A DNA stretch of 13,345 nucleotides, taken from Rubripirellula sp. (GTDB lineage: Bacteria > Planctomycetota > Planctomycetia > Pirellulales > Pirellulaceae). The notes under the pieces are model-generated. The model was not told the origin of the DNA, made no database searches, and saw only the letters and a program-made list of their open reading frames with translations. This document shows positions 498 through 11,678 of this stretch, piece after piece. The position numbers and the translations under genes were made by a program. The stretch is taken from positions 1 to 13,345 of the forward strand of contig JARFQX010000458.1 of assembly GCA_029287555.1 (NCBI GenBank), written 5' to 3'. Each line of letters starts with the position of its first letter. Position 1 is the first letter of the stretch.

Positions 498-1376
498 TCA
501 GGCGGAACAACGGGTTCCCGGGCCTACTGCCGGGAAGGGACCGCATGGGATTTCGTGAGCCATCACCTCGCGCGCGGCGACGGGTAGTTGCGGCGCCTGC
601 GAGATGGGCAAGATCGCGTCGTTACCGTGAACGTAATAGGATTCCAGCCGCATTGCCCCGTCATGGTACTCCACCAGCGCCGTGCAGTTTTCGACCCAGT
701 CGCCCGTATTGCAATAAATCATCTCATCCTGATGAAAGAGGTCTGGTGTGTGGATGTGGCCGCAGATGACCCCGCGGCATCCCTGCCGCCGGGCATGTTC
801 GAGTAGCTGCCGCTGAAAATCACTCAGAAAACGGATGAACCTCTTGACGCTACCCTTGATCGAGGCGCAGGTCGCGTAGGGACTGCGTCGAGGGTCTCGC
901 CGCAATCGGCTACAGTACCAATCGAGCGATAACATTGGATCGTAAATGTAGGAGCTTGCGTGGGACAGCCACTGGGCTCGCGTTTCAAACACGTCGAATT
1001 CATCGCCGTGCGTGACGAGGAATCGCCTGCCGTCCAAGGCCTCGAAGACAAATTCATCAGCGATGTGAATATTCAAAGCGGCTACTTGTAACACGCCACG
1101 GACCTCATCCATTCGCAAGAATTGATCGTGGTTGCCAGGCGTGTAGAAGACTTGCGTTCCCCGTTCGATCATTGCAAAGAGATGTCGAAGGATCTGGCTA
1201 TTGATGGCGGGCCAACGAAACGAAGACCGAAGCTTCCAACCGTCGATGAAGTCACCAAGGATGTAGATCTTGTCCGGCTCGATGCCACGAAGGAAGTCCA
1301 ACAGAAGATGGGGCTGAGCGAATCGGCAGCCCAAATGAACGTCGCTTATGAAAAGCGTGCGTGCTTTGCGTTCCAT
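498..1376 (-). CDS. LpxH-family calcineurin-like metallophosphoesterase, PlcP-like (candidate phospholipase C supplying diacylglycerol for lipid remodelling)
   Basis: ORF 498..1385. All metallophosphoesterase motifs are present in order: SDVHLG (DxH), LGDFIDGW (GDxxD), PGNHD (GNHD), THGDEFD (H), CGHIHTP (GHxH). GNHD rather than the GNRD of E. coli LpxH, together with the GT4 gene immediately upstream in the same operon, matches the plcP-agt arrangement. I prefer the ATG at 1376 (MERKARTLFISDVHLG) over the GTG at 1385. 292 aa. Confidence 0.8.
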   Translation of the reverse strand: MERKARTLFISDVHLGCRFAQPHLLLDFLRGIEPDKIYILGDFIDGWKLRSSFRWPAINSQILRHLFAMIERGTQVFYTPGNHDQFLRMDEVRGVLQVAALNIHIADEFVFEALDGRRFLVTHGDEFDVFETRAQWLSHASSYIYDPMLSLDWYCSRLRRDPRRSPYATCASIKGSVKRFIRFLSDFQRQLLEHARRQGCRGVICGHIHTPDLFHQDEMIYCNTGDWVENCTALVEYHDGAMRLESYYVHGNDAILPISQAPQLPVAAREVMAHEIPCGPFPAVGPGTRCSA

Positions 1377-1454
1377 CACAGTCACCCATTATCCTTCTTT
1401 CATCGGCCAACGGTCGGGTTGTTTGCTCAGCCGGTCTGAACCGGAAGCGGAGCG

Positions 1455-2726
1455 TCAGGCTTGGCTCGGCTGAGTCGCCAGCGGCGAGGATGAACTTCGC
1501 CAGCTTCGCTGCAGCCAGGAGGCGCTGCGAAAGGCGAAGACTAAGCTGGATACAGCCAGGGACGAACACCGGGACGCGACGCGACGCTGTTCACGTGCCG
1601 CATCCAATGTTTCCATTGCTTCCTGGTAGCGTCTCCGCACCTCCTCGGTGGAGGCTCGCCACCCACAGCGTTCGACGTGACTCCGCGCGCGAGAACCAAG
1701 CGACCGACGAAGTTCGACGCTACCAAGCAGCTTCGCCAGCGAGGTCTGCGCCGCGTCAACATCTCCAGGACAATAGAGCACGCCGGACTCGCCATCTTGC
1801 ATTAGCGACGGGATTCCACCGGCCGCGGGCGCCAACACCGGTAATCCTGATGCCATCGCTTCCATGACCACATTCCCCATTGTTTCGGTTTCTGATCCGT
1901 ACAAGAACAGATCCGCCGAAGCATATGCCTGCGCAAGCTCCTGTCCTCGCAGGTAGCCGGTGAACGTCGTTTTGCTGCCGGCGAAGCGGCGTTCCAGGCG
2001 GGCGCGATCGGGACCGTCACCCACGATCGCCAGCCTTGCCCCGGGAAACCGCTCGATTACCTTTGCGAGAAAGTCAACGTTCTTTTCAACTGCTAAACGC
2101 GAAACCGTCAGCAACAAGGGCGTATCCGGCTCGCCCGATGTCAGCCGATACCGCATCGACTCGGACTGGCGCTTCGGTTGGAACAGTTGTGTATCGACAG
2201 CGGGTGGCCAGGTCCGAACGCGCTCAAAGCCGCGCTGCTCCAATTCCGCTCGCAAAATGGATGAAACTGTCAGGTTCACGTCGGCACAGTTGTGGTAGCT
2301 TCGAGTCAAATGCCACAGCGGGCGCGACAGCTTGCGAAGCACGGGATACTGTTTGACGAATTCACCGTACAACGTGTGAAAGGAAAAGACTGTCGGAATC
2401 GATATTCTGTGCCGTGCCAGAACGTCATGGCAGCGAAAGCCGAAGGCGAACGGATTCAGGAAATGGATCACATCTGGCGCAAACTCCCGGATTACCTCGA
2501 TAAGTCGCTCCGACGGCACGCCAATCCGATACTCGGGATAGGCGACGCACGGGAAGCTGGGAAACGAAACCGTGCGAATGGATGGGTGTTGGCAATCCTC
2601 GGCGTGGGGGCAAAAGACAACCACCTCATCACCAGCTTCGGAAAGATGTTCCAGCAGTCGCATCGTTCGCATCACGACCCCGTCAATCTTCGGCAGAAAG
2701 ACTTCCGCGATTATCGCGACTCGCAT
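1455..2726 (-). CDS. GT4 (GT-B fold) glycosyltransferase, SqdX/Agt-like; candidate diacylglycerol glycosyltransferase
   Basis: ORF 1455..2750. The N-terminus MRVAIIAEVFLPKIDGVVMRT is the typical SqdX/SQD2-type GT4 start. An EX7E motif sits in GSETETMGNVVMEAMASGLPVL. The ATG at 2726 is preceded by AGAGGAGA with an 8-nt spacer, so I prefer it to the GTG at 2750. 423 aa, with a ~50-aa tail beyond the expected fold. Confidence 0.85.
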   Translation of the reverse strand: MRVAIIAEVFLPKIDGVVMRTMRLLEHLSEAGDEVVVFCPHAEDCQHPSIRTVSFPSFPCVAYPEYRIGVPSERLIEVIREFAPDVIHFLNPFAFGFRCHDVLARHRISIPTVFSFHTLYGEFVKQYPVLRKLSRPLWHLTRSYHNCADVNLTVSSILRAELEQRGFERVRTWPPAVDTQLFQPKRQSESMRYRLTSGEPDTPLLLTVSRLAVEKNVDFLAKVIERFPGARLAIVGDGPDRARLERRFAGSKTTFTGYLRGQELAQAYASADLFLYGSETETMGNVVMEAMASGLPVLAPAAGGIPSLMQDGESGVLYCPGDVDAAQTSLAKLLGSVELRRSLGSRARSHVERCGWRASTEEVRRRYQEAMETLDAAREQRRVASRCSSLAVSSLVFAFRSASWLQRSWRSSSSPLATQPSQA

Positions 2727-2734
2727 GACTTGAT

Positions 2735-2739
2735 CTCCT
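2735..2739 (-). promoter_or_regulatory. Shine-Dalgarno-like AGGAG for the GT4 gene
   Basis: The minus-strand sequence reads gattAGAGGAGAtcaagtcATG. The AGGAG core lies 8 nt upstream of the ATG at 2726. Confidence 0.5.
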
Positions 2740-2846
2740 CTAATCCGCACGTTGGCGCGAGTCGTTCGCCGCCCTGGGGAAGCGTTGAGCGGACGGACGT
2801 GCCATCCAGCAGCCCATCGAAGCTCTGTCAGCAGATGCCGTTTGTC

Positions 2847-3668
2847 TCATCGAGGCTTCCGGGCGACGGCGATGACGATGCTGTGGTGATCCGAGACTGG
2901 AAAAACCAGGGTGTTCAGGAATTGGCGAGTCAACCAGCCTGCCCGCTGGAGCCCCAGTTCTTCGACGAATGGCGTCAGCCAGCCGCCGTGATAGGCAAAC
3001 TCCATGAACCCGTCGAAATGCTCGAACTTGAGTTCTGGCTCGAAGGTCTCGGTTATCTCCGACTCGAATCCCCCATCCTCGAATCGGCGCTTGACTTCCT
3101 GTTCGTCTTCCGGCGTTAGTAGGTTGCCTTCCGCCGAAACGCCCCTTCGGTTGAACAGTGCCTGCAGGACACGAGACTTGGCAATTCTCTGCAGCGCCGG
3201 ATAGCCCCGGCTTGTCCCGCCAACGAACGACCAATAGCCGCCGGGCTCCAAGTGGTCCCAAATTTTGGGTGCCAAAGTCTGCATCGGAACGAATCCGGTT
3301 ACGAAATGCGTGCAGATCATACCGAACGCCTGTCCGGCGAAATGAATTTCAAAATTCGCGGCATCATCGACCGCCGTGGCGATCTCCGGGATACGCTCCC
3401 GGGCGATCTCGACCATCTGTTTAGAAATATCTAGCCCGGAGGGAACGACATCCCGATCGGTCGATTGAATCAATCGCTCTAGGAACAGCCCCGTGCCTAC
3501 ACCAAGATCCAAGACACGGAGTGGTGGCAGGCCCGCTTTGAGAAGGTCGAGATCATCGAGCTGCCGAAGCGACGCTGCGATGGTCCGCTGAATCACGTCC
3601 TGAGGATCAACGTCATAATGCTTCGCAATGACTTCATCGTATTGCCTTTGAATGACTTCCTTGTGCAT
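2847..3668 (-). CDS. class I SAM-dependent methyltransferase (substrate unknown; candidate head-group N- or O-methyltransferase)
   Basis: 273-aa ORF starting at the ATG at 3668. Motif I VLDLGVGTG (3489-3515) has the usual acidic and loop context (LRVLDLGVGTGLFLERL). Later segments fit motifs II/III (IATAVDDAANF, FGMICTHF). It is the first gene of the leftward operon. Confidence 0.85.
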   Translation of the reverse strand: MHKEVIQRQYDEVIAKHYDVDPQDVIQRTIAASLRQLDDLDLLKAGLPPLRVLDLGVGTGLFLERLIQSTDRDVVPSGLDISKQMVEIARERIPEIATAVDDAANFEIHFAGQAFGMICTHFVTGFVPMQTLAPKIWDHLEPGGYWSFVGGTSRGYPALQRIAKSRVLQALFNRRGVSAEGNLLTPEDEQEVKRRFEDGGFESEITETFEPELKFEHFDGFMEFAYHGGWLTPFVEELGLQRAGWLTRQFLNTLVFPVSDHHSIVIAVARKPR

Positions 3669-3864
3669 GTCGATCCCAGTTGTCCCATCGAGGAACGAAA
3701 GTTCTAGCGAAGCCTGAGTGATTCCGTGTCAAGTCTCGCTCGCCGGGAAGCTGGCAGCGGTTAGTCGCAAAACTCCGAGCCGCTATCAACTAATGGAATC
3801 ACCCGGTCCACTTTGCCAACGGCCGGAACGATACACACGTTATGTGAGGACTACGCGAGAGAAC

Positions 3865-3890
3865 TTGTGACGATTTGATAAATACTGACA
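3865..3890. repeat. three 10-bp-phased yTGnnA hexamers in the most AT-rich patch of the divergent control region
   Basis: TTGTGA (3865-3870), TTGATA (3875-3880) and CTGACA (3885-3890). The opposite strand reads TGTCAG-tatt-TATCAA-atcg-TCACAA. The site lies about 190-200 bp from both divergent start codons. Its function is unproven. Confidence 0.25.
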
Positions 3891-3954
3891 CGTTTTCCCG
3901 GATGTGAATTGCGAGCAAGAGGGAAGCTGATAAAGTTCTCGGCGCCGTGGACAA

Positions 3955-3980
3955 GGCAAACTTGCATTGGCAAGTTCGCC
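3955..3980. promoter_or_regulatory. 26-bp imperfect inverted repeat (candidate operator or 5'-UTR hairpin) upstream of the GMC gene
   Basis: GGCAAACTTGC-ATTG-GCAAGTTCGCC. 10 of 11 arm positions are complementary (one A/C mismatch) around a 4-nt centre. It lies ~100 bp upstream of the ATG at 4079. Confidence 0.35.
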
Positions 3981-4078
3981 TCGCCTGATCGAAAGGAATG
4001 TTATGTGTGCGAAGCGGTTTGTTGCCGCTTTGGGAATGCTGAAGGCGTCGTAACAATCGGCCAACAGGACGTGTCCCG

Positions 4079-5662
4079 ATGTCGAGTCTCTTACAACCTG
4101 GTGAGAAACGGGCGAACGATTCAAACACGCGTGGCGGCGAACCGTTCACGGCCCTCCCGCCCCCACCCGATTCCGAATGTCGCTTTGACGTGATTGTGAT
4201 TGGAAGCGGGGCTGGTGGCGCGGTGTTCGCGTGGAAGTGCGCGATGTCAGGCAAACACGTGTTATTGATCGAACGGGCCAGATCGCTTGGTTCACTTCCG
4301 CGTGACGAACTGTCCACACTCGTCGAAAAGCGTCCCTACGATAATCGCACCATCGATTTAAACGGGAAGAGCCAGCGTCTTTACATCGGCGGCACCATCG
4401 GGGGCAGCACGTCGCTCTACGGAGCGGCGTTGCTGAGACCAAGTCTCGATGACTTTCATCCGGGCCGCTACTACAGCCATCGCTTGCCCAAGTATCGATG
4501 GGACTGGCCGATCGACTACGAAGCACTGGCTTCGCATTATGACCGGGCGGAGCAACTTTTCGGTGTAACAAACCCGGCTAGCGAGGACTTTGACCCACTT
4601 CAGTCTCCCGGAACGCAGCTCAACGGCGAGCCGATTCCCCTCGCTCCGATCAATCGCCACCTGGTTGCTTCGAGTCGTTCCGCAGGATGGAAGCCGTTTC
4701 GCTTGCCGCTGGCGATCAACGGAAAGACATGTCTTCGCTGCGCCGCCTGTGCTGGCTACGTCTGCCCGAACGGTTCTCGCCGAAGCGGCGCGGATCTGTT
4801 GCGAGACGCAACCGCGGGCGATGGTTCGCTGCATCTCATCGAGGGCACCGAAACTTTGGAGTTTCGCCGGGGACTCGATGGGGCAGTCACATCGGTACTT
4901 ACACATGGCGAGAGCGATGGAGTGCGCCGGGAGTTTTATGCCAAGCGTTACGTCCTGGCCGCCGGCGCACTCGGTTCCGCCGCGGTCTTGTTGCGATCCG
5001 GGATTGGTGGTCAACACGTCGGGCGCAACTACATGTTCCACTATTCGCCCATTGCTGTCGGGCTATTTCCCTCGCCGACCGAGGCTGATCGCACCTTCGT
5101 GAAGCAGATTGGTTTCGCGGACCATTACTTCGGCACACCCGATTGCCGCGAAAAGATCGGCATCATTCAGTCGCTTCCGGCTCCGGGATTGATGATGATG
5201 CGGAAGAACGGCTCGCGTGGAGTCCCTCGAGCCATCCTCAAGGTTCTCCGCCGGCGCATGCTACCGTTGCTGGGCATCGTCGAGGACCTTCCCGATCCAC
5301 GTAATCGCATCGTCATTGACGGCAGGCGAATAGCTTTGCGTCATCGTTTCAGCGAGTTTGACCGCGCGCGCGGGCGAGCCCTTGCGAAACAAATGGTGTG
5401 TATCTTGAAGCAAGCCGGAGCCGTCCATTGCCTCGTCCGCCAGAGCACTTCCAGCGACCACGTCGCTCACCAATGCGGATCCCTTCCCATGGCCGCGAAG
5501 CGAGAACACGGTGTCGTTAGCCGCGATTGCCGCGTCTATGGGGCGCCAAATCTGTTTGTCGTCGACGGCAGTGTTCTACCCATGTCACTTGGGGTCGGCC
5601 CCGCGCTGACAATCATGGCCAATAGCTTGCGAGTCGCCGATCAGGTTGTCTCGGAATGTTGA
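4079..5662 (+). CDS. GMC-family FAD-dependent oxidoreductase (gluconate-2-dehydrogenase flavoprotein-like subgroup)
   Basis: 527 aa. The N-terminal FAD Rossmann motif is FDVIVIGSGAGGAVFA...LLIERA. The GMC C-terminal signature is HQCGSLPM...NLFVVDGSVLPMSLGVGPALTIMANSLRVADQV. An internal Cys-rich motif CLRCAACAGYVC is present. Confidence 0.9.
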   Translation: MSSLLQPGEKRANDSNTRGGEPFTALPPPPDSECRFDVIVIGSGAGGAVFAWKCAMSGKHVLLIERARSLGSLPRDELSTLVEKRPYDNRTIDLNGKSQRLYIGGTIGGSTSLYGAALLRPSLDDFHPGRYYSHRLPKYRWDWPIDYEALASHYDRAEQLFGVTNPASEDFDPLQSPGTQLNGEPIPLAPINRHLVASSRSAGWKPFRLPLAINGKTCLRCAACAGYVCPNGSRRSGADLLRDATAGDGSLHLIEGTETLEFRRGLDGAVTSVLTHGESDGVRREFYAKRYVLAAGALGSAAVLLRSGIGGQHVGRNYMFHYSPIAVGLFPSPTEADRTFVKQIGFADHYFGTPDCREKIGIIQSLPAPGLMMMRKNGSRGVPRAILKVLRRRMLPLLGIVEDLPDPRNRIVIDGRRIALRHRFSEFDRARGRALAKQMVCILKQAGAVHCLVRQSTSSDHVAHQCGSLPMAAKREHGVVSRDCRVYGAPNLFVVDGSVLPMSLGVGPALTIMANSLRVADQVVSEC

Positions 5663-5687
5663 TTCTCCAACTTCGAAAGTCGGGTGT

Positions 5688-6605
5688 ATGGTGCGAGTCA
5701 AGATTGAAGAACTCTCGCAGGCGAAACAAATTCACGGCGGGCTGGTTCAGCTTTGCGCCGCCTCCCTTGGTGTTCGCCTCGCCCGCGTTCCGATTCCAAC
5801 GCGGCGGCTGCGACGACACGTGTTTAGCCGGATCTACGGCGATAAATATCCCGCCCTTTGCGAAGCCGATTTGGAGAAGCCGCTGCACGACTACCGCTCC
5901 ATCAACGAACTCTTCACTCGCGGGATCCGCGCGGACCGTCGCCCCATGCCCGAAGGCTCCAATCAACTAATCTGTCCCTGCGATTGCACCGTCCAGGACT
6001 CCGGTACCTTGGAACGATCGCTCGTTCTAAACGCCAAAGGAATCTCCTATTCCCTCGCGTCCCTGTTAGCGACTGACCAAGTTCAATCGTTTTCGGGCGG
6101 GCAGTACGCCGTGCTGTTTCTTTCCCCGAGTGATTGTCACCGTGTGTTTTGTCCCACCGAATCGGAACTTGTCGAGATCACGCACGTCCCCGGCCGCCGT
6201 CTGCTGGTGCACCCACCCTATCAACGGAAAGAATATCCGGTCTTCACGCTCAACGAACGTGTGGTGATGCAACTGCGCAGTCCGCGCGGATCGATCGCCT
6301 TGGTGATGATTGCGGGCTGGGGTGTAGGCAACATCACGTATCGGTTTGCCTACGGACCGCGAAAGCGCTCCTATCGGTTGTCTCGCTACGTTTGCGAGCC
6401 GTCGGAACGATTCCAGCGTGGTGACTGGCTGGCGACCTTTGAATTGGGTTCGACCGTGATTCTGGCCATCGAGCCAACGGTGTGCGACTCGCTGGGCCTC
6501 GTTCCGGGCAAGACGCTTCGCTATGGAGAGTCACTGGCCCCGCTCCGATCGTCCTCATCAAAGCCTGTGTCCACGAACACGTTGACATCGAAGGGGAAGT
6601 CATGA
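5688..6605 (+). CDS. psd: phosphatidylserine decarboxylase-family pyruvoyl proenzyme
   Basis: Collinear with E. coli Psd: YRSINELFTRGIRADRRP (cf. YRTFNEFFVRPLR..RP), ICPCDCTV (cf. PADG), FLSPSDCHRVFCP (cf. YLSPRDYHRVHMP), FTLNERVV, and the self-cleavage motif FELGSTVIL (LGST at 6444-6455). I prefer the ATG at 5688 to the TTG at 5646, which would overlap the GMC stop. 305 aa. Confidence 0.85.
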   Translation: MVRVKIEELSQAKQIHGGLVQLCAASLGVRLARVPIPTRRLRRHVFSRIYGDKYPALCEADLEKPLHDYRSINELFTRGIRADRRPMPEGSNQLICPCDCTVQDSGTLERSLVLNAKGISYSLASLLATDQVQSFSGGQYAVLFLSPSDCHRVFCPTESELVEITHVPGRRLLVHPPYQRKEYPVFTLNERVVMQLRSPRGSIALVMIAGWGVGNITYRFAYGPRKRSYRLSRYVCEPSERFQRGDWLATFELGSTVILAIEPTVCDSLGLVPGKTLRYGESLAPLRSSSSKPVSTNTLTSKGKS

Positions 6606-8266
6606 TGGAAGCAATGAAACAGATTATCATCGGACCACGTTCGCCGCTGGCTCTTCGCTACGCCAAGTACCTAAGCGAAGTCGGCGGTCGGACCGTCACA
6701 CTTGTGGCATTGAGTCCGCTACCGAAGACCGAAGACGGGGATCGCCCATTCCATCTCTCTGCCGAACAGTTTGCAAGTGACACATCGCGGGCTGGCGATG
6801 TTTGCCTTGTTCTCTTCGACGTCCGCCATTGCTGCGACGACGAGACACTCATGCAAGGTGTCGAAGAACACCTGCGGAGGAATCCCGGTGCGCTGCTGTT
6901 TCTGATCAGCAGTGCATCGATTCACAGCGGCGATCTCCGCTGCTCCCGGGCGGAAACAAAGCTTCACGATCGGTTTGGACCGCTTGCGTCGCGGCTCGTT
7001 ACCCTACGCGTGACCCACCAGGTTGGTCCCGAGACGCTGGCATCCGTGATTGACGCGGAAACTCACTCCGCCCGTGGCCGCCGATCGCGCACCTTCACGT
7101 TGCTGGAACCGACCGTCGGCGTCCGAAGCCCGAACCCGCTTGAGGCATTGTCAAGCGACCCGAATGACATCGAGACAACCCGCTCGCGCGGGACCTCCGG
7201 TGCGAGCGGATTCCGATCACTCGGCAAGCTGCTCCCGCGTCCGGGCGCATCGATGCCGGAGACTCTGCGTCCGAACAGCGTCAGCGAATTGCTGACGCTT
7301 TACCATCCCTACAGCTACCAGCACGTGCAGATCGCCGGGTGCAACACGGGCGTCAAGCATTTTGGCTGGGAGTTTCCCGGCAAGACCCTGATCCAAACAA
7401 TCCGAACTGCCAGACGGGCCCGCGTGCGTGGCGACCGACTTGATGTTGACGCCGGACTGACGCTGAAACTGGCAATCGAGTGCCTGCGCCGAGTCGAGAA
7501 GGAGTTCTACGTTGTCCCCAACTACTCCTACATCAGCATGGGGACCATCTTCTTTGTTCCGGTACATGGCTCCGGCAGCGATGTGTCCACGCTGGGCGAA
7601 ACGATCGAAAAGGCACTGCTGTATCTGCCGGACGAGGACCGATTCCTGCGAATCAAACGAGGGGACCCCAATTTTGGTCGCTACATCTACCGGCCTGAAT
7701 CGAAAGCGCTTGTTTTACGCTTGACCTTTCGCATTCGTGATCAAACGCGTTATTTCGTCAAACAATCGACACACGCCACGCCGCGGGCGCGTGAAATCGT
7801 CGATCACTTCAGCGATCCGGAAGCCGTGAACGTTGAAATCCGCAAGTCGAAGGCAGCAGATGATTGTGTCACGATTCGAAAGTACTACGAGCATGACCAG
7901 ATTGCTTCCGGAAAACCGCTCGAGCTTCCCAAGGACTCGCTCGGCCGGCTCTGGGATCGATTGGAGGAAACACCGGTCGTGTCTCACCTCTTCCACGAGT
8001 ACGTACGTCGATTCGGCTATCACGTCGAATTGTTCCTCAGCAAAACCCAATTCGATCGGTTTTGGAAGGCTCATCGAGAGCTTCCGCTCAGGAAGATTCA
8101 ACTGCGTCGCATGAAGCAGGATGGACTGCCTCATTCGCCATGCAGCGACTGCGACCGAATCTCGGCCGACCTGTTCATGAAGCGATCCGACAAGGACCGC
8201 TTCTTAGCCTTCATCGAGCACCACTTGCCAGACGTCCACTTCAATCCCGGGAAGCACAGCCGATGA
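6602..8266 (+). CDS. two-domain protein: degenerate SDR/Rossmann-like N-domain + PCMH-type FAD-oxidase-like (FAD_binding_4 / ALO-DprE1-like) C-domain
   Basis: The start ATG at 6602 overlaps the psd stop (ATGA). N-domain: KQIIIGPRSPLALRYAKYLSEVGGRTVTLVA (beta1-loop-helix pattern), LISSASIHSG...CSRAETK (at the SDR S...YxxxK position, with Y replaced), LVTLRVTHQVGPE. A low-complexity R/S/P/T linker follows (~7064-7261). C-domain: VQIAGCNTGVKHFG (at the GGGHS position), LDVDAGLTLKLAIECL, SMGTIFFVPVHGSGSDVSTLGETI (cf. tvGGaiat.ahGsg..yG), and a C-terminal VHFNPGKH (cf. HWGK of ALO/GULO). This is a motif-level call only. 554 aa. Confidence 0.55.
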   Translation: MMEAMKQIIIGPRSPLALRYAKYLSEVGGRTVTLVALSPLPKTEDGDRPFHLSAEQFASDTSRAGDVCLVLFDVRHCCDDETLMQGVEEHLRRNPGALLFLISSASIHSGDLRCSRAETKLHDRFGPLASRLVTLRVTHQVGPETLASVIDAETHSARGRRSRTFTLLEPTVGVRSPNPLEALSSDPNDIETTRSRGTSGASGFRSLGKLLPRPGASMPETLRPNSVSELLTLYHPYSYQHVQIAGCNTGVKHFGWEFPGKTLIQTIRTARRARVRGDRLDVDAGLTLKLAIECLRRVEKEFYVVPNYSYISMGTIFFVPVHGSGSDVSTLGETIEKALLYLPDEDRFLRIKRGDPNFGRYIYRPESKALVLRLTFRIRDQTRYFVKQSTHATPRAREIVDHFSDPEAVNVEIRKSKAADDCVTIRKYYEHDQIASGKPLELPKDSLGRLWDRLEETPVVSHLFHEYVRRFGYHVELFLSKTQFDRFWKAHRELPLRKIQLRRMKQDGLPHSPCSDCDRISADLFMKRSDKDRFLAFIEHHLPDVHFNPGKHSR

Positions 8267-10419
8267 GGTCATCCACTGTCGCAGATGTCCGAATCGAGGA
8301 CGCGTTCGGTCAGCTGATGGACCGGCAGCTACCCAATCTGTTTCGCTTATACCTCAATCCGATCGTGACGCAGGCGTGTCTTTGCCTCTCGCGGATCGCC
8401 TCCGCAAGCAAGGATGGAGTGCGGAGCAGTGGCGGAACGTATCAGATTTTTCTTGCCAACGGCCACGACGAAGCGTTGAGTGGTGCCATAAAACTGACCC
8501 GATACATCCAGAACCTGCGCCGTCGAGATGCCAAGGTACTCATTCGGGGACCGCAACACCGTATCGCACACTTCGCCTCCACGGTCCTTCCGAGCGGACG
8601 CCGCATATGCTTTGTGCCCGAGGTGATGGAGTGCTTCGACGGCGAGGAAAGCACCAGTGCACCGGATCCCGGGAGTTTCGGCGTTGTCGTTACTTTTGCC
8701 AGCCTCGGGCAGCTAGACAATCAACTTGGCGATAATCAGCTGACGATCTTATCCGTCGGCTTGAGGGATGTCTTCAATGCCGGTGGAGATCTCCCCCGCG
8801 GATGGTCGCCCATCGCTTGTCCCGACGTGATTGTATTCGATGCATCGTGGGTCCACCACGACGTGCCGTTCTCTGCATTTGCAGCCAAGTCCACGCTGCT
8901 TCGACATTGGCGAAAGAGAACCATGTCGATGTTTCACTCAACGACCTTTCAACCGAACACCATTGCCAGTCTTCACTTATTGAATTGCCTTCGTCGCGAT
9001 GCGTGGGCGTTCATGACATCGATGAACCCGAAGCTGGAGCGGATTGAACACGATCGCAGCTATCGATGCAAGGTTTTCAGTTCACTCTACAGCCCTTCGC
9101 TCGCGCGACTCATTCGAACCACCGGCTTCGATCAATCGGAACCGACTGCGACGGGACACAAGATTCGAATCCGAGACAAGACGGTGTTTGACGCCGTCGG
9201 CGGCGTTGCCTGCAGCATCCGAGGACACAACCCGCCATCGTATTTGGACGAGATCAACGCCGTCGAGTCCGCGAATTTGCGTGGACGCCTGCAGTCAAAG
9301 CTTGAACGGCTTGTCGGGCTCGGCCATTTCATCCCAGCCGGGAGCGGCGCCGCGGCGGTCGAAACTGCTCTCAAGGTCGGGCTGGTGAGCCAGACCAGGG
9401 GTGACTATGTGTTGGCGCTGCGAGGCGGATTTGGGGGCAAGACCCTGTTCGCCTTGACTGGTACTGATAGCGACCGGTTAAAGACAAACTTGCAACCTCT
9501 CTACCCCAAAGTGATCTTCGTCGACCCGTATGCGGCCGACAGTCTGGATGCCTTGCGACACGCAATGGATCACTTTCGAGTCGGCATCGTCCAAATGGAA
9601 TTGATCCAGGGAGTCGGTGGCGTCCGCACCATTCCCCGTGCAGTCGTCGATTATGTCCAACAGCGGCGAGAGCGAGACGGCTACTGGTTGTTTGTCGATG
9701 AAGTACAAACCGGCATGTATCGAACTGGAGAGATCACGCTTTCAAAAAGGATGGGTCTTCGCGCCGACTTTTTGACGCTCGGAAAGGGCACCTCCGACAT
9801 GATGTTTCCCTCCGCGCTGGCACTGCATTCGGACGAGGTGGAAAATCGATTGCGTGAACTCGATACCGACCTGGACACGGTGCTCAGGCAACGCCATGAG
9901 CACGCGTGGGGCTACAAGACGATTCTGAACACGCTGCAGTATTGTGAGAAGCGAGAGATCCGAGAACAGGTGTTTGCCGCCGAACAGCTGTTCAGAGAGC
10001 GTTTGCACGGCAAGATCGATTGCCTGCCGAACGTGCGGGAGATTCGAGTGTTTGGCCTGTTGATCGGCATTGAATTGAAGGCAAAACAACCGCTAGCTCG
10101 CTTTGATTCATCTCTCGCCTCACTCTACCTGCTGGAGATGCTTCGTCACCCCCAATTCCCGCTGCTCGCAGGTTTCTGTCAAAACGAACGAAATGTGCTG
10201 AAGTTAACCCCGCCCTTGACGGTCGGCGCGGAGGAGATTCACCACATCTGCGACACCGTCATCGATTCTCTCAGCCGGCCCCTATCGAAGCTTGCGCTGT
10301 CAGGCGTCGGCGCGAAGTTGCGTTGCCACCTGCCCATTCAGGTCCTACGGGCTCGAGCACAACCGATCCTCAAAGTGTCAGCCGCGAACCCATCATCGCC
10401 ACACGATTCTGCGGCGTGA
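8263..10419 (+). CDS. tandem class-III (fold type I) aminotransferase: degenerate N-terminal copy + intact PLP-dependent C-terminal copy
   Basis: The start ATG at 8263 overlaps the upstream stop (ATGA). C-terminal copy: GHNPPSYLDEI, IPAGSGAAAVETALKVG, LFVDEVQTGMYRTGE, FLTLGKGTSDMMFPSA (Schiff-base Lys codon aag at 9784-9786), VREIRVFGLLIGIEL, LKLTPPLTV. N-terminal copy: LYLNPIVTQ, FLANGHDEALSGAIKLTRY, PDVIVFDASWVHHDVPFSAFA, FHSTTFQPNTIA. 718 aa. Confidence 0.8.
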   Translation: MRSSTVADVRIEDAFGQLMDRQLPNLFRLYLNPIVTQACLCLSRIASASKDGVRSSGGTYQIFLANGHDEALSGAIKLTRYIQNLRRRDAKVLIRGPQHRIAHFASTVLPSGRRICFVPEVMECFDGEESTSAPDPGSFGVVVTFASLGQLDNQLGDNQLTILSVGLRDVFNAGGDLPRGWSPIACPDVIVFDASWVHHDVPFSAFAAKSTLLRHWRKRTMSMFHSTTFQPNTIASLHLLNCLRRDAWAFMTSMNPKLERIEHDRSYRCKVFSSLYSPSLARLIRTTGFDQSEPTATGHKIRIRDKTVFDAVGGVACSIRGHNPPSYLDEINAVESANLRGRLQSKLERLVGLGHFIPAGSGAAAVETALKVGLVSQTRGDYVLALRGGFGGKTLFALTGTDSDRLKTNLQPLYPKVIFVDPYAADSLDALRHAMDHFRVGIVQMELIQGVGGVRTIPRAVVDYVQQRRERDGYWLFVDEVQTGMYRTGEITLSKRMGLRADFLTLGKGTSDMMFPSALALHSDEVENRLRELDTDLDTVLRQRHEHAWGYKTILNTLQYCEKREIREQVFAAEQLFRERLHGKIDCLPNVREIRVFGLLIGIELKAKQPLARFDSSLASLYLLEMLRHPQFPLLAGFCQNERNVLKLTPPLTVGAEEIHHICDTVIDSLSRPLSKLALSGVGAKLRCHLPIQVLRARAQPILKVSAANPSSPHDSAA

Positions 10420-10437
10420 TTCCGGCTCAAGATCCGA

Positions 10438-10443
10438 AAGGAG
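10438..10443 (+). promoter_or_regulatory. Shine-Dalgarno AAGGAG for the membrane-protein gene
   Basis: The sequence reads gaAAGGAGaagtccATG, with a 6-nt spacer to the ATG at 10450. Confidence 0.55.
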
Positions 10444-10449
10444 AAGTCC

Positions 10450-10935
10450 ATGGTCCACCCCCTGATGATCGATTTCCAGGAATTGTACCGCCGACACCTC
10501 TGTCGGCATTCTCAGTTTGGTCTCAACGTCTTGCACCTGGTCGCCGTTGTCGGGATCTACCTTTCGCTCTATCGCATCGTATTCTCGCTGCCGGGCTCGA
10601 TGTGGATTCTTGGAGCCGGATTGGCACTCTACCTTGGAATCCTATTGGCAAAGCTGCCCTTTCGGTTGTGGCTGATTAACACGGTCATGGTGCTGTTGTT
10701 GCTGTCCCTTGCCGCAGCTGCTCCAGCATTTCCCATCTGGGGATACGCCCTGCTGATCGTAGTCCTGCACTGGTTCCAGAACTGGTCGCACCGAATCTAC
10801 ACAACGGCGTTCGACATGAGCGCCTACAAGGAAAAATATCCAAAGGGCCTGCCGTTGTTTTTGACCTTATCGTTGTTCGAGCTGCCGATCTTGTTGAACT
10901 ATCTGGCGTTCGACCGAAGAAGCTGGGCATCGTGA
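10450..10935 (+). CDS. small polytopic membrane protein, possibly DUF962/Mpo1-like
   Basis: 161 aa with 4-5 hydrophobic spans (VLHLVAVVGIYLSLY, WILGAGLALYLGILLA, LINTVMVLLLLSLAAAAPAF, IWGYALLIVVL, LPLFLTLSLFELPILLNYLAF). The His pattern YRRH...NVLH and WFQNWSH resembles yeast Mpo1 (YHHNPKNVLIH and IFQFVGH). The resemblance is judged from memory of that sequence and was not computed. Confidence 0.6.
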   Translation: MVHPLMIDFQELYRRHLCRHSQFGLNVLHLVAVVGIYLSLYRIVFSLPGSMWILGAGLALYLGILLAKLPFRLWLINTVMVLLLLSLAAAAPAFPIWGYALLIVVLHWFQNWSHRIYTTAFDMSAYKEKYPKGLPLFLTLSLFELPILLNYLAFDRRSWAS

Positions 10936-11678
10936 TGCTGATCTCAAAATCCAAGCGAGTTAGAAGGACGGGGCCAGATTTTGTTCCGCAGTCGGATCCG
11001 TTTCGGCCGGTACATATTCGCCCGGCGGTTGAACCCGATCCAGGACGAGCGAGGTTGCGAGCACGTTCTGCTTTAGTGTCCGAGGTCGTCGTCTTGCTGC
11101 ACGGATTTGGCGCGCGTCCACTGATGATGCGAGGGATCGAAAGAAAGCTGCGGCAGAACCGATTCGACGTCATCAACTGGGGTTACGCGAGCACGCGTCA
11201 ATCCATAGCCTTCCACAGCGGGAGGCTGCGGGATGCGCTGGTGGGTTGTCGGCTAGTCGTTGATTACGGGCGTGTTCACCTGGTGGGTTACAGCATGGGC
11301 GCGATCATCGCCCGACACGCGGTTGCATCCCACGCGGACTTTCCTCCGGGTCGAATCGTTTTGTTAGCGGCACCCAACCAGGGAACGCACGTTGCCCGCA
11401 CAGCGGCCCGCGTGATCGGCAGGTTCTGTCCCACGCTCAACGACCTGTCCGACGCACGTTTCAGTACGGCGAACGTGATTCACACTCCCCGGGACCGGGA
11501 AATAGGAGTCATCGCCGCGAAGAACGATTGGGTGGTGCCACTATCACACACCCACCTGGCCGACCAACGAGACCACATCGTCGTGCCCGGCGATCACTTA
11601 CGACTACCACTGCTGCGAGAAACCAGTCGCCAAGTCGTAAAATTTCTGCAGAACGGCTCGTTTTCTAGGGCAAGTTGA
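10932..11678 (+). CDS. alpha/beta-fold serine hydrolase (lipase/esterase-like)
   Basis: Oxyanion region VVVLLHGFG, nucleophile elbow HLVGYSMGAII (GxSxG), later AAKNDWVVP (Asp) and VPGDHLRLP (His). The GTG at 10932 / ATG at 10935 overlaps the upstream TGA (10933-10935). A shorter start at the GTG at 11076 (MSEVVVLLHGFG) is also possible, because the first ~48 aa are a basic, Pro-rich extension with no signal-peptide character. Confidence 0.8.
   Translation: MMLISKSKRVRRTGPDFVPQSDPFRPVHIRPAVEPDPGRARLRARSALVSEVVVLLHGFGARPLMMRGIERKLRQNRFDVINWGYASTRQSIAFHSGRLRDALVGCRLVVDYGRVHLVGYSMGAIIARHAVASHADFPPGRIVLLAAPNQGTHVARTAARVIGRFCPTLNDLSDARFSTANVIHTPRDREIGVIAAKNDWVVPLSHTHLADQRDHIVVPGDHLRLPLLRETSRQVVKFLQNGSFSRAS

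Follow-up and report, generated by a model that had tools for sequence, protein, structure and literature searches.

The closest described relatives of the protein studied here are flavoenzymes of the vanillyl-alcohol oxidase/p-cresol methylhydroxylase (VAO/PCMH) superfamily. Enzymes of the GULO/AldO type bind flavin adenine dinucleotide (FAD) covalently through a His, among them alditol oxidase (AldO) of Streptomyces coelicolor (PDB 2vfr-2vfu), a soluble enzyme built as a single domain. L-galactono-1,4-lactone dehydrogenase (GalDH; 8qmy, 8qnb) holds its FAD non-covalently. DprE1 of Mycobacterium tuberculosis (4fdo), also a PCMH flavoenzyme, is paired with the short-chain dehydrogenase/reductase (SDR) DprE2 on a lipid-linked substrate, the two being separate proteins that are both active. 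Here we analyzed a 13,345-nucleotide stretch of DNA (the window) from the planctomycete Rubripirellula sp. (assembly GCA_029287555.1, contig JARFQX010000458.1), in which one gene encodes a 554-residue protein that pairs the same two folds. Unlike DprE1 and DprE2, however, this protein is a fusion whose SDR half lacks the cofactor loop and the catalytic dyad, and its genomic partner is an aminotransferase where that of DprE1 is a reductase. Its C-terminal half is very probably a working flavoenzyme, and we lean slightly toward a role in which the fusion converts a hydroxyl of a lipid head group to a carbonyl for that aminotransferase, alongside a dedicated paralogue of phosphatidylserine decarboxylase (PSD).

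We refer to the window protein and its relatives as family A. An AlphaFold2 model of the window protein, built on 51 homologues, reached a pLDDT of 83 and a pTM of 0.83 and consists of three parts: an SDR-type Rossmann domain, a disordered linker and a VAO/PCMH flavoenzyme domain (Table 1). An earlier, sequence-only reading of this DNA had proposed such a fusion of an SDR-like domain to a PCMH/ALO-like domain across a low-complexity linker. Foldseek and VIA-align searches with AlphaFold2 models bear this out, giving an SDR fold for the N-terminal domain and a PCMH fold for the C-terminal one, and the linker is the only stretch with a pLDDT below 50.

Foldseek searches of the PDB with the C-terminal domain returned GalDH (8qnb, 7e-16), AldO (2vfs) and DprE1 (4fdo), with E-values of 1e-13 to 7e-16. 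GalDH was the top match and is the only cap-bearing relative that was also found by sequence profile. By VIA-align the best structural match was AldO, which has the same two-subdomain fold at 17-18% identity (2vfu, Z 27.7, root-mean-square deviation 2.8 A over 315 residues, model 217-554). DprE1 (Z 27.2), cytokinin dehydrogenase (CKX; Z 27.1) and GalDH (Z 26.7) superposed over the same part of the model, approximately residues 217-554, with DprE1 at Z 26-27 over about 310 residues and 10-13% identity. The modelled domain therefore contains both the two-subdomain PCMH FAD-binding fold and the cap. At the level of sequence, a family A profile matched the FAD subdomain of PDB 3pm9, a D-lactate-dehydrogenase/GlcD-like oxidoreductase (E 0.0022), and that of GalDH (E 0.0075). 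PF01565 (FAD_binding_4) was matched by 36 of the 51 family A members at E <=0.01 (best 6.9e-8), with no match to the window protein even at E 10. On these grounds the protein can be placed in the VAO/PCMH superfamily by fold and family-level profile, and among the SDRs by fold and descent only.

The motifs of this domain are well kept. Within the FAD diphosphate loop, G246, N248, G250, H253, F254 and G255 are invariant in the 51-sequence alignment, and the family profile aligns the loop to GGNTGLVGG of 3pm9 and VGSGLSPNG of GalDH. The sequence-only reading took GCNTGVKH for an altered GGGHS; it does sit at that position, but it is an invariant family motif, and from the alignments G-x-N-x-G-x-x-H-F-G is a known style of diphosphate loop, similar to the GGNTG of D-lactate dehydrogenases, and not a broken GGGHS. 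Family A sequences also carry a second HG-x-G loop, which reads HGSGS in the window protein and corresponds to HGTG in GalDH; H322, G323 and S324 are invariant. The position of the covalent His of GULO/AldO-type enzymes aligns to G250 or V251, so non-covalent binding of FAD, as in GalDH, is likelier, although the invariant H253, two to three residues further on, leaves room for an alternative. Near the C-terminus, N548, G550 and K551 are invariant in family A. K551 is also invariant in a sister family described below (family B), where the motif reads HxGK and so resembles HWGK of ALO enzymes. The superpositions end at model residue 554, which corresponds to AldO 378 and DprE1 421, and in both cases this lies 3 residues beyond the catalytic lysines, AldO Lys375 and DprE1 Lys418. 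As the chain ends NPGK551-HSR, K551 is the probable counterpart of these lysines, judged by range end-points rather than residue pairs. The chain differs from those of the relatives: the target stops right after its Lys motif and has an N-terminal pseudo-SDR, unlike AldO, and it reads NPGK where GalDH has HWGK. The window protein retains 97 of the 103 columns that are conserved at >=90% in the other 50 sequences, and 52 columns are invariant across the whole alignment, nearly all of them in the C-terminal half. Given this conservation together with the fold and motifs, we judge the C-terminal domain very probably to be a working flavoenzyme.

The N-terminal domain shows the opposite pattern. 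Modelled alone, residues 1-176 reached a pLDDT of 87, and Foldseek returned only SDRs, namely EntA (2fwm; E 1.2e-4, TMq 0.62), FabG-like enzymes and, as atypical or extended SDRs, TIP30/CC3, 3gpi and SDR39U1. In a VIA-align search of 48,161 chains, the top 50 were essentially all members of the SDR superfamily (Z 11.3-12.9, 145-172 of 176 residues aligned), which establishes a Rossmann-type SDR fold independently of Foldseek. However, we found no glycine-rich NAD(P) loop (TGxxxGxG or GxxGxxG) in register in any of the 51 sequences. The window protein reads IIIGPRSP at this site, as previously noted, and the degeneration is family-wide: of the 51 sequences, 21 have Gly and another 21 have Asp at the key column 11, and glycine motifs occur as chance matches in 4 of 51. 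The catalytic Tyr-x3-Lys pair is likewise absent. With the two columns placed by alignment to family B proteins that retain YxxxK, the position of the Tyr is occupied by Glu118 in 48 of 51 sequences, in place of the Cys/Arg that had been suggested for the window protein, and that of the Lys varies (His in the window protein). Near-invariant polar residues do occur in this domain (H108, D111, E118 and R136). The N-terminal domain is thus the relic of an extended-type SDR and, with neither the glycine loop for NAD(P) nor the Tyr/Lys dyad left, a pseudo-reductase, which probably persists for a structural or docking role. The doubt raised earlier over catalysis in either domain is thus well placed for the N-terminal half but not for the strongly conserved C-terminal half. 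In most homologues a hydrophobic segment stands at the position of the linker (maximum Kyte-Doolittle 19-mer 1.6-2.7, versus 1.19 in the window protein) and is likely a membrane anchor.

The weakest matches of our exhaustive search define family B (P0213, P0219, P0226 and P0235), to which we add a 635-residue open reading frame (ORF) from another species of the window's genus (L084:8965-10872, genome G011); P0244, from a Rhodopirellula sp. metagenome-assembled genome (MAG), is also listed as family B. This family comprises about 20 sequence clusters in the Planctomycetota and is much rarer than family A. It has the domain order of the target and an inter-domain hydrophobic segment, at an identity of 18-21%, and the two share invariant residues R136, G246, P306-N307-Y308, H322 and K551. 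The N-terminal domains of family B are extended SDRs (PF01370, PF13460) with the motifs ITGATGGIG and SYIxMK (YxxxK). They are followed by two hydrophobic segments and a PCMH domain that scores 29-51 bits against PF01565 (cut-off 26.4) and ends in HxGKYS. Because this rare sister family has the same architecture with intact SDR motifs, family A appears to be the derived form, in which the reductase half decayed. The phrase "DprE2-DprE1 logic in one polypeptide", used in the sequence-only reading, is therefore a fair label for the ancestor-like family B form, for which an epimerase is plausible from the motifs, but it does not fit the window protein: a DprE1-DprE2-type epimerase combines an active oxidase with an active NAD(P)H reductase, and here the oxidase half looks intact while the reductase motifs are missing. 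At the one family B locus inspected, the gene adjoins a fusion of a family 4 glycosyltransferase (GT4) with a metallophosphoesterase and, unlike the target, has no PSD, aminotransferase or GMC-family neighbours.

The genomic setting of family A is tightly conserved. We recovered 80 loci from species-representative genomes and counted synteny in the 73 where all four genes are present. In 73 of 73 the genes run in the order GMC oxidoreductase, PSD, fusion gene, aminotransferase, usually with a 161-residue membrane protein next. In the window the open frame of the fusion gene spans 6482-8266, and we assign the biological start to the ATG at 6602, which lies shortly after a purine-rich GAAGGGGAAG and shares bases with the TGA that ends the PSD gene before it (ATGA, 6602-6605; gtcATGAtgg). 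The stop codon (8264-8266) in turn overlaps the ATG of the aminotransferase (ATGA, 8263-8266; ccgATGAgg). In related loci, too, the orthologue begins only a few bases from where the PSD gene stops, and the two frequently overlap by 7 or 13 nucleotides. The link to the downstream aminotransferase that the sequence-only reading drew is thus upheld by translational coupling and by the invariant gene order. No in-frame fusion of GMC to PSD, PSD to the fusion gene or the fusion gene to the aminotransferase was present in the 73 loci; the metagenomic protein P0016, which joins PSD to PF01565, is the sole such case and could be an assembly error. Nor did we find natural split-gene homologues, a possibility raised earlier, among the 80 loci. 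The fusion is a single ORF in all but seven, and these seven short ORFs look like frameshift errors, since all come from 'MFD' MAGs, which we take to be indel-prone long-read assemblies, and several are accompanied by a truncated aminotransferase match. The loci derive from Pirellulales, Planctomycetales (Planctomycetaceae), Gemmatales (Gemmataceae), Isosphaerales (Isosphaeraceae) and Tepidisphaerales, including the cultured strains Singulisphaera acidiphila DSM 18658, Singulisphaera sp. GP187, Aquisphaera insulae and Paludisphaera soli; a few locus-bearing MAGs are labelled Kuenenia, Chitinophaga or Trichodesmium and have identical synteny. At least 73 planctomycete genomes in five orders thus contain a strictly ordered operon, as yet without annotation, for which the gene serves as a marker.

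The PSD encoded in this operon is distinct from the housekeeping enzyme. No other PF02666 gene is present in the complete genome of S. acidiphila, in three other cultured Isosphaeraceae or in the window's genome. In these five genomes no TIGR00473-type PssA was found (best 28 bits versus a cut-off of 107, the weak matches being Pcs-like and PgsA proteins; E. coli-type, PLD-family PssA was not searched). We considered whether the cluster replaces PssA, but this fails as a general rule: among 40 further genomes with the cluster, 29 encode a PssA-like protein, and in 24 of these it exceeds the cut-off. For comparison, the PssA cut-off is reached by 34 of 41 genomes (40 relatives without the cluster plus the window's genome), and pssA often lies beside a psd. 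Cluster-bearing genomes with pssA carry a second PSD beside it, and those without PssA mostly have the cluster copy only (8 of 11). The cluster PSD is therefore a paralogue in its own right, dedicated to the cluster and independent of the housekeeping pssA-psd pair. Its amino-acid-type substrate must come from elsewhere, and it would most economically be supplied by the aminotransferase encoded two genes downstream.

We hypothesize, with a confidence that only modestly favors this scheme, that the fusion is a pseudo-SDR/FAD oxidase of a lipid head-group pathway. It would bind FAD non-covalently and oxidize a hydroxyl on the head group of a membrane lipid, be it a polyol, a sugar or a 2-hydroxy-acid. 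The resulting carbonyl would be turned into an amine by the class-III aminotransferase to which the fusion is translationally coupled. Within this pathway the dedicated PSD paralogue would decarboxylate a head group of the amino-acid type, a second oxidation could come from the GMC flavoprotein, and the neighbouring methyltransferase may methylate the product. A membrane or lipid context is suggested by the neighbours (PSD, a polytopic membrane protein, a GT4 and an LpxH/PlcP-like phosphoesterase) and by the hydrophobic inter-domain segment of most homologues. In evolutionary terms, an epimerase-like fusion of oxidase and reductase would have been converted to an oxidase that feeds a transaminase. 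If so, the active (family B) and decayed (family A) versions would offer a clear case of a bifunctional oxidase-reductase becoming an oxidase that hands its product to a transaminase. The operon points to an undescribed lipid head-group pathway and could reveal new head-group chemistry in a phylum known for unusual lipids.

Several observations weigh against this hypothesis. Searched by itself, even with lenient thresholds, the 554-residue window protein matched none of the Pfam and NCBIfam models or PDB sequences, so the evidence is structural and family-level. PF04030 (ALO) was matched by 0 of 51 relatives and not by the window protein, in a whole-genome search that found only a gene on contig C888. 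The window protein is therefore not filed in the ALO Pfam family, which also sets it apart from AldO and GalDH; the ALO-type cap proposed in the sequence-only reading stands by fold, cap included, but not by sequence. Membrane association is less evident for the window protein itself, as it and its closest relative, P0003, lack the hydrophobic segment along with about 30 residues of the SDR domain. Two flavoproteins, GMC and the fusion, are encoded in the operon, either of which could feed the aminotransferase. The order of steps from oxidase to aminotransferase to PSD we infer from the chemistry only. Finally, cytokinin oxidase/dehydrogenases superposed on the C-terminal domain at Z 25.9-27.1, a tie with AldO and DprE1. 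These enzymes oxidize amines, and alcohol oxidation is therefore not the sole chemistry compatible with the fold.

A more elaborate scheme, which we consider rather unlikely, has the core enzymes (GMC, PSD, fusion, aminotransferase and methyltransferase) assemble an amino head group directly on the membrane lipid, with no need for a phosphatidylserine synthase, as a lipid-linked analogue of the phosphoserine pathway. Both flavoproteins would oxidize a vicinal diol, for example the glycerol of phosphatidylglycerol (PG), through a 2-hydroxy-acid to a 2-oxo-acid resembling phosphatidyl-hydroxypyruvate. Transamination would then give a serine-like head group, the dedicated PSD an ethanolamine-like one, and N-methylation would follow, so that each core enzyme is used once. 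The fusion would perform one of the two oxidations, and the dead SDR domain would be what remains of an earlier epimerase that oxidized and then reduced.

The structural tie with cytokinin dehydrogenases, and the translational coupling to an upstream decarboxylase that makes a primary amine, would also suit an amine dehydrogenase or oxidase whose flavin domain attacks a C-N bond, for instance in the amine released by the PSD paralogue. We think this improbable, as such an activity would be redundant beside a co-operonic aminotransferase that interconverts amine and carbonyl, and the C-terminal Lys motif would be one held in common with the alcohol-oxidizing AldO, DprE1 and ALO enzymes. It is also improbable that the fusion is a soluble sugar, polyol or 2-hydroxy-acid oxidase without a lipid role, with a small amine or compatible solute as the operon's product. 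The window protein does lack a hydrophobic segment, AldO and GalDH act on soluble substrates, and the FAD loop resembles that of the D-lactate-dehydrogenase/GlcD clade. However, hydrophobic inter-domain segments occur in most family A and all examined family B members, the PSD family acts on membrane phospholipids, and the operon includes a polytopic membrane protein and has linked GT4 and PlcP/LpxH-like genes.

A non-catalytic scaffold, in which both domains are pseudo-enzymes that hold PSD and aminotransferase together, might explain why the window protein has no sequence-model match and a clearly degenerate N-terminal domain, and it would suit the fixed two-domain body that the pTM suggests and the joining of PSD to family A in P0016. 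Yet the invariant residues gather in the FAD loops and the cap, not on the surfaces expected of a scaffold, K551 is invariant in both families and PF01565 is still matched by most relatives, which leaves this explanation quite doubtful. A self-contained epimerase like DprE1/DprE2, in which the PCMH domain oxidizes a hydroxyl of a lipid-linked sugar and the fused SDR reduces the ketone with the opposite stereochemistry, draws on the shared architecture and is plausible for family B with its canonical SDR loop, YxxxK and GT4-metallophosphoesterase neighbour, but for the target it is very unlikely, because the NAD(P) loop and Tyr/Lys dyad are gone throughout family A (Glu in the Tyr column, a variable Lys column), the window protein is some 30 SDR-domain residues short and the invariant neighbour is an aminotransferase and no reductase.

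Table 1. Positions in the window of the fusion gene, of its domains and motifs, and of the other operon genes
Feature	Position	Strand	Basis or remarks
Whole gene, 554 codons + stop: pseudo-SDR, linker, VAO/PCMH flavoenzyme (family A)	6602..8266	+	ORF/start analysis, homologues, AlphaFold2 model
SDR-type Rossmann domain, residues 1-173, without G-x-x-G-x-x-G and YxxxK	6602..7120	+	Foldseek, VIA-align, motif statistics
Disordered low-complexity linker, residues 174-216	7121..7249	+	Only stretch below pLDDT 50
VAO/PCMH flavoenzyme domain, residues 217-554: FAD-binding subdomain + AldO/DprE1/GalDH-type cap	7250..8263	+	VIA-align, Foldseek, PF01565 in 36/51 relatives
FAD diphosphate loop G246-C-N-T-G-V-K-H-F-G255 (family consensus GYNxGVxHFG)	7337..7366	+	Invariance, profile alignment
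Second FAD-contact loop H322-G-S-G-S326 (HGTG in GalDH, HGSG in the genome's own ALO protein)	7565..7579	+	H322, G323, S324 invariant; alignments
N548-P-G-K551, followed by the last three residues; K551 probably equivalent to the catalytic Lys of HWGK	8243..8254	+	Invariance, superposition end-points
GMC-family FAD oxidoreductase, first operon gene	4079..5662	+	PF00732, PF05199; syntenic in all loci reaching far enough
PSD-family pyruvoyl decarboxylase, upstream partner, coupled to the fusion gene	5646..6605	+	PF02666 E 6.5e-44; TIGR00163 141 bits vs cut-off 112
Class-III aminotransferase, 718 aa, ~300-aa N-terminal extension, coupled to the fusion gene	8263..10419	+	PF00202 E 6.5e-33; best NCBIfam PigE; adjoins the fusion gene in all loci reaching far enough
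Polytopic membrane protein, 161 aa, conserved core	10450..10935	+	Syntenic in nearly all loci; weak Mpo1/DUF962-like signal; five hydrophobic segments

Beyond the four-gene core, the 161-residue membrane protein has the invariant His and Arg residues R15, H16, R19, H20, H29 and H114, and PF06127 (Mpo1-like, 2-hydroxy-fatty-acid dioxygenase) was weakly matched in 8 of 13 orthologues (best E 0.0097). Almost every locus has a class-I methyltransferase beside the operon, and usually also a GT4 and an LpxH/PlcP-like metallophosphoesterase, in varying orientation. In the window, positions 498-11678, essentially the whole contig, form one conserved cluster of the core with these three genes. The methyltransferase, GT4 and phosphoesterase form a module whose place varies. 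Pirellulales and Planctomycetaceae have it upstream of the core in divergent orientation, whereas Gemmataceae have it downstream; in Isosphaeraceae the GT4 is missing nearby.

The GT4 of the window (1455-2750, minus strand) has as its best NCBIfam match the N-acetylglucosaminyl (GlcNAc)-phosphatidylglycerol synthase NF053787 (131 bits versus a cut-off of 480), ahead of diacylglycerol glucosyltransferases. This ranking hints that the enzyme might glycosylate the head group of PG rather than diacylglycerol. There are likewise hints of a glycolipid or PG-linked substrate for the cluster in this match and in the position of family B beside the GT4-metallophosphoesterase fusion. A GlcNAc-phosphatidylglycerol pathway has been described (PMC12713373). 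At the family B locus (L084), an rve-type integrase lies upstream, and two unannotated ORFs, possibly one frameshifted gene, lie downstream, followed by the GT4-metallophosphoesterase fusion of 869 residues.

A word-indexed search recovered at least 378 relatives of the window protein, nearly all of them unnamed proteins from Planctomycetota MAGs. They are 520-740 residues long, with an identity of 50-59% over the C-terminal 60% and of 35-45% overall. Family A is nonetheless small, as an exhaustive HMMER scan of 1.84 billion cluster representatives matched only 123 clusters. No family A member was found in 24 other species of the window's genus, where the only match was the family B protein of G011. 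In 300 genomes drawn evenly from the phylum, each family was found in 0 of 300, although the positive controls, the window's genome and that of S. acidiphila, were matched; four candidates were scored per genome in this survey, so that some matches were possibly missed, and the two family A runs apparently used the same sample. Given this absence despite working controls, family A constitutes a sparse, patchily distributed accessory cluster. The window is an entire 13.3-kb contig (13345 nt) of a MAG that is 74% complete and has 1073 contigs, and horizontal acquisition or mis-binning of this contig are both possibilities. Our literature searches found no paper on family A or its operon, and the combination of SDR and flavoenzyme is not described in the literature found, though both folds are ordinary.

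Singulisphaera acidiphila can be cultured, and a deletion mutant of the species has been obtained (PMC12493201). Its major lipids are TMOL, phosphatidylcholine (PC), PG and phosphatidic acid (PA), along with unidentified spots on thin-layer chromatography (TLC) (PMC12493201). The idea that its PC is a product of the cluster PSD and methyltransferase is weakened, since the genome encodes a Pcs-like protein and PC need not arise there by methylation of phosphatidylethanolamine (PE). The Pcs-like protein (L092:566-1393, at about 7.136 Mb of G041:C1) scores 143 bits, below the equivalog cut-offs.

When the family A profile was compared by hhalign with the window genome's own ALO protein, the match reached a probability of 7.9% and covered the FAD subdomain only, which made it unusable for mapping cap residues. 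This ALO/GULO-type flavoenzyme, which also has 554 residues and is unrelated to the cluster, is encoded on contig C888 (L083:1480-3144, minus strand), carries the motifs VGKRHS, THGSG and RPHWGK, and matches PF04030 at 60 bits.

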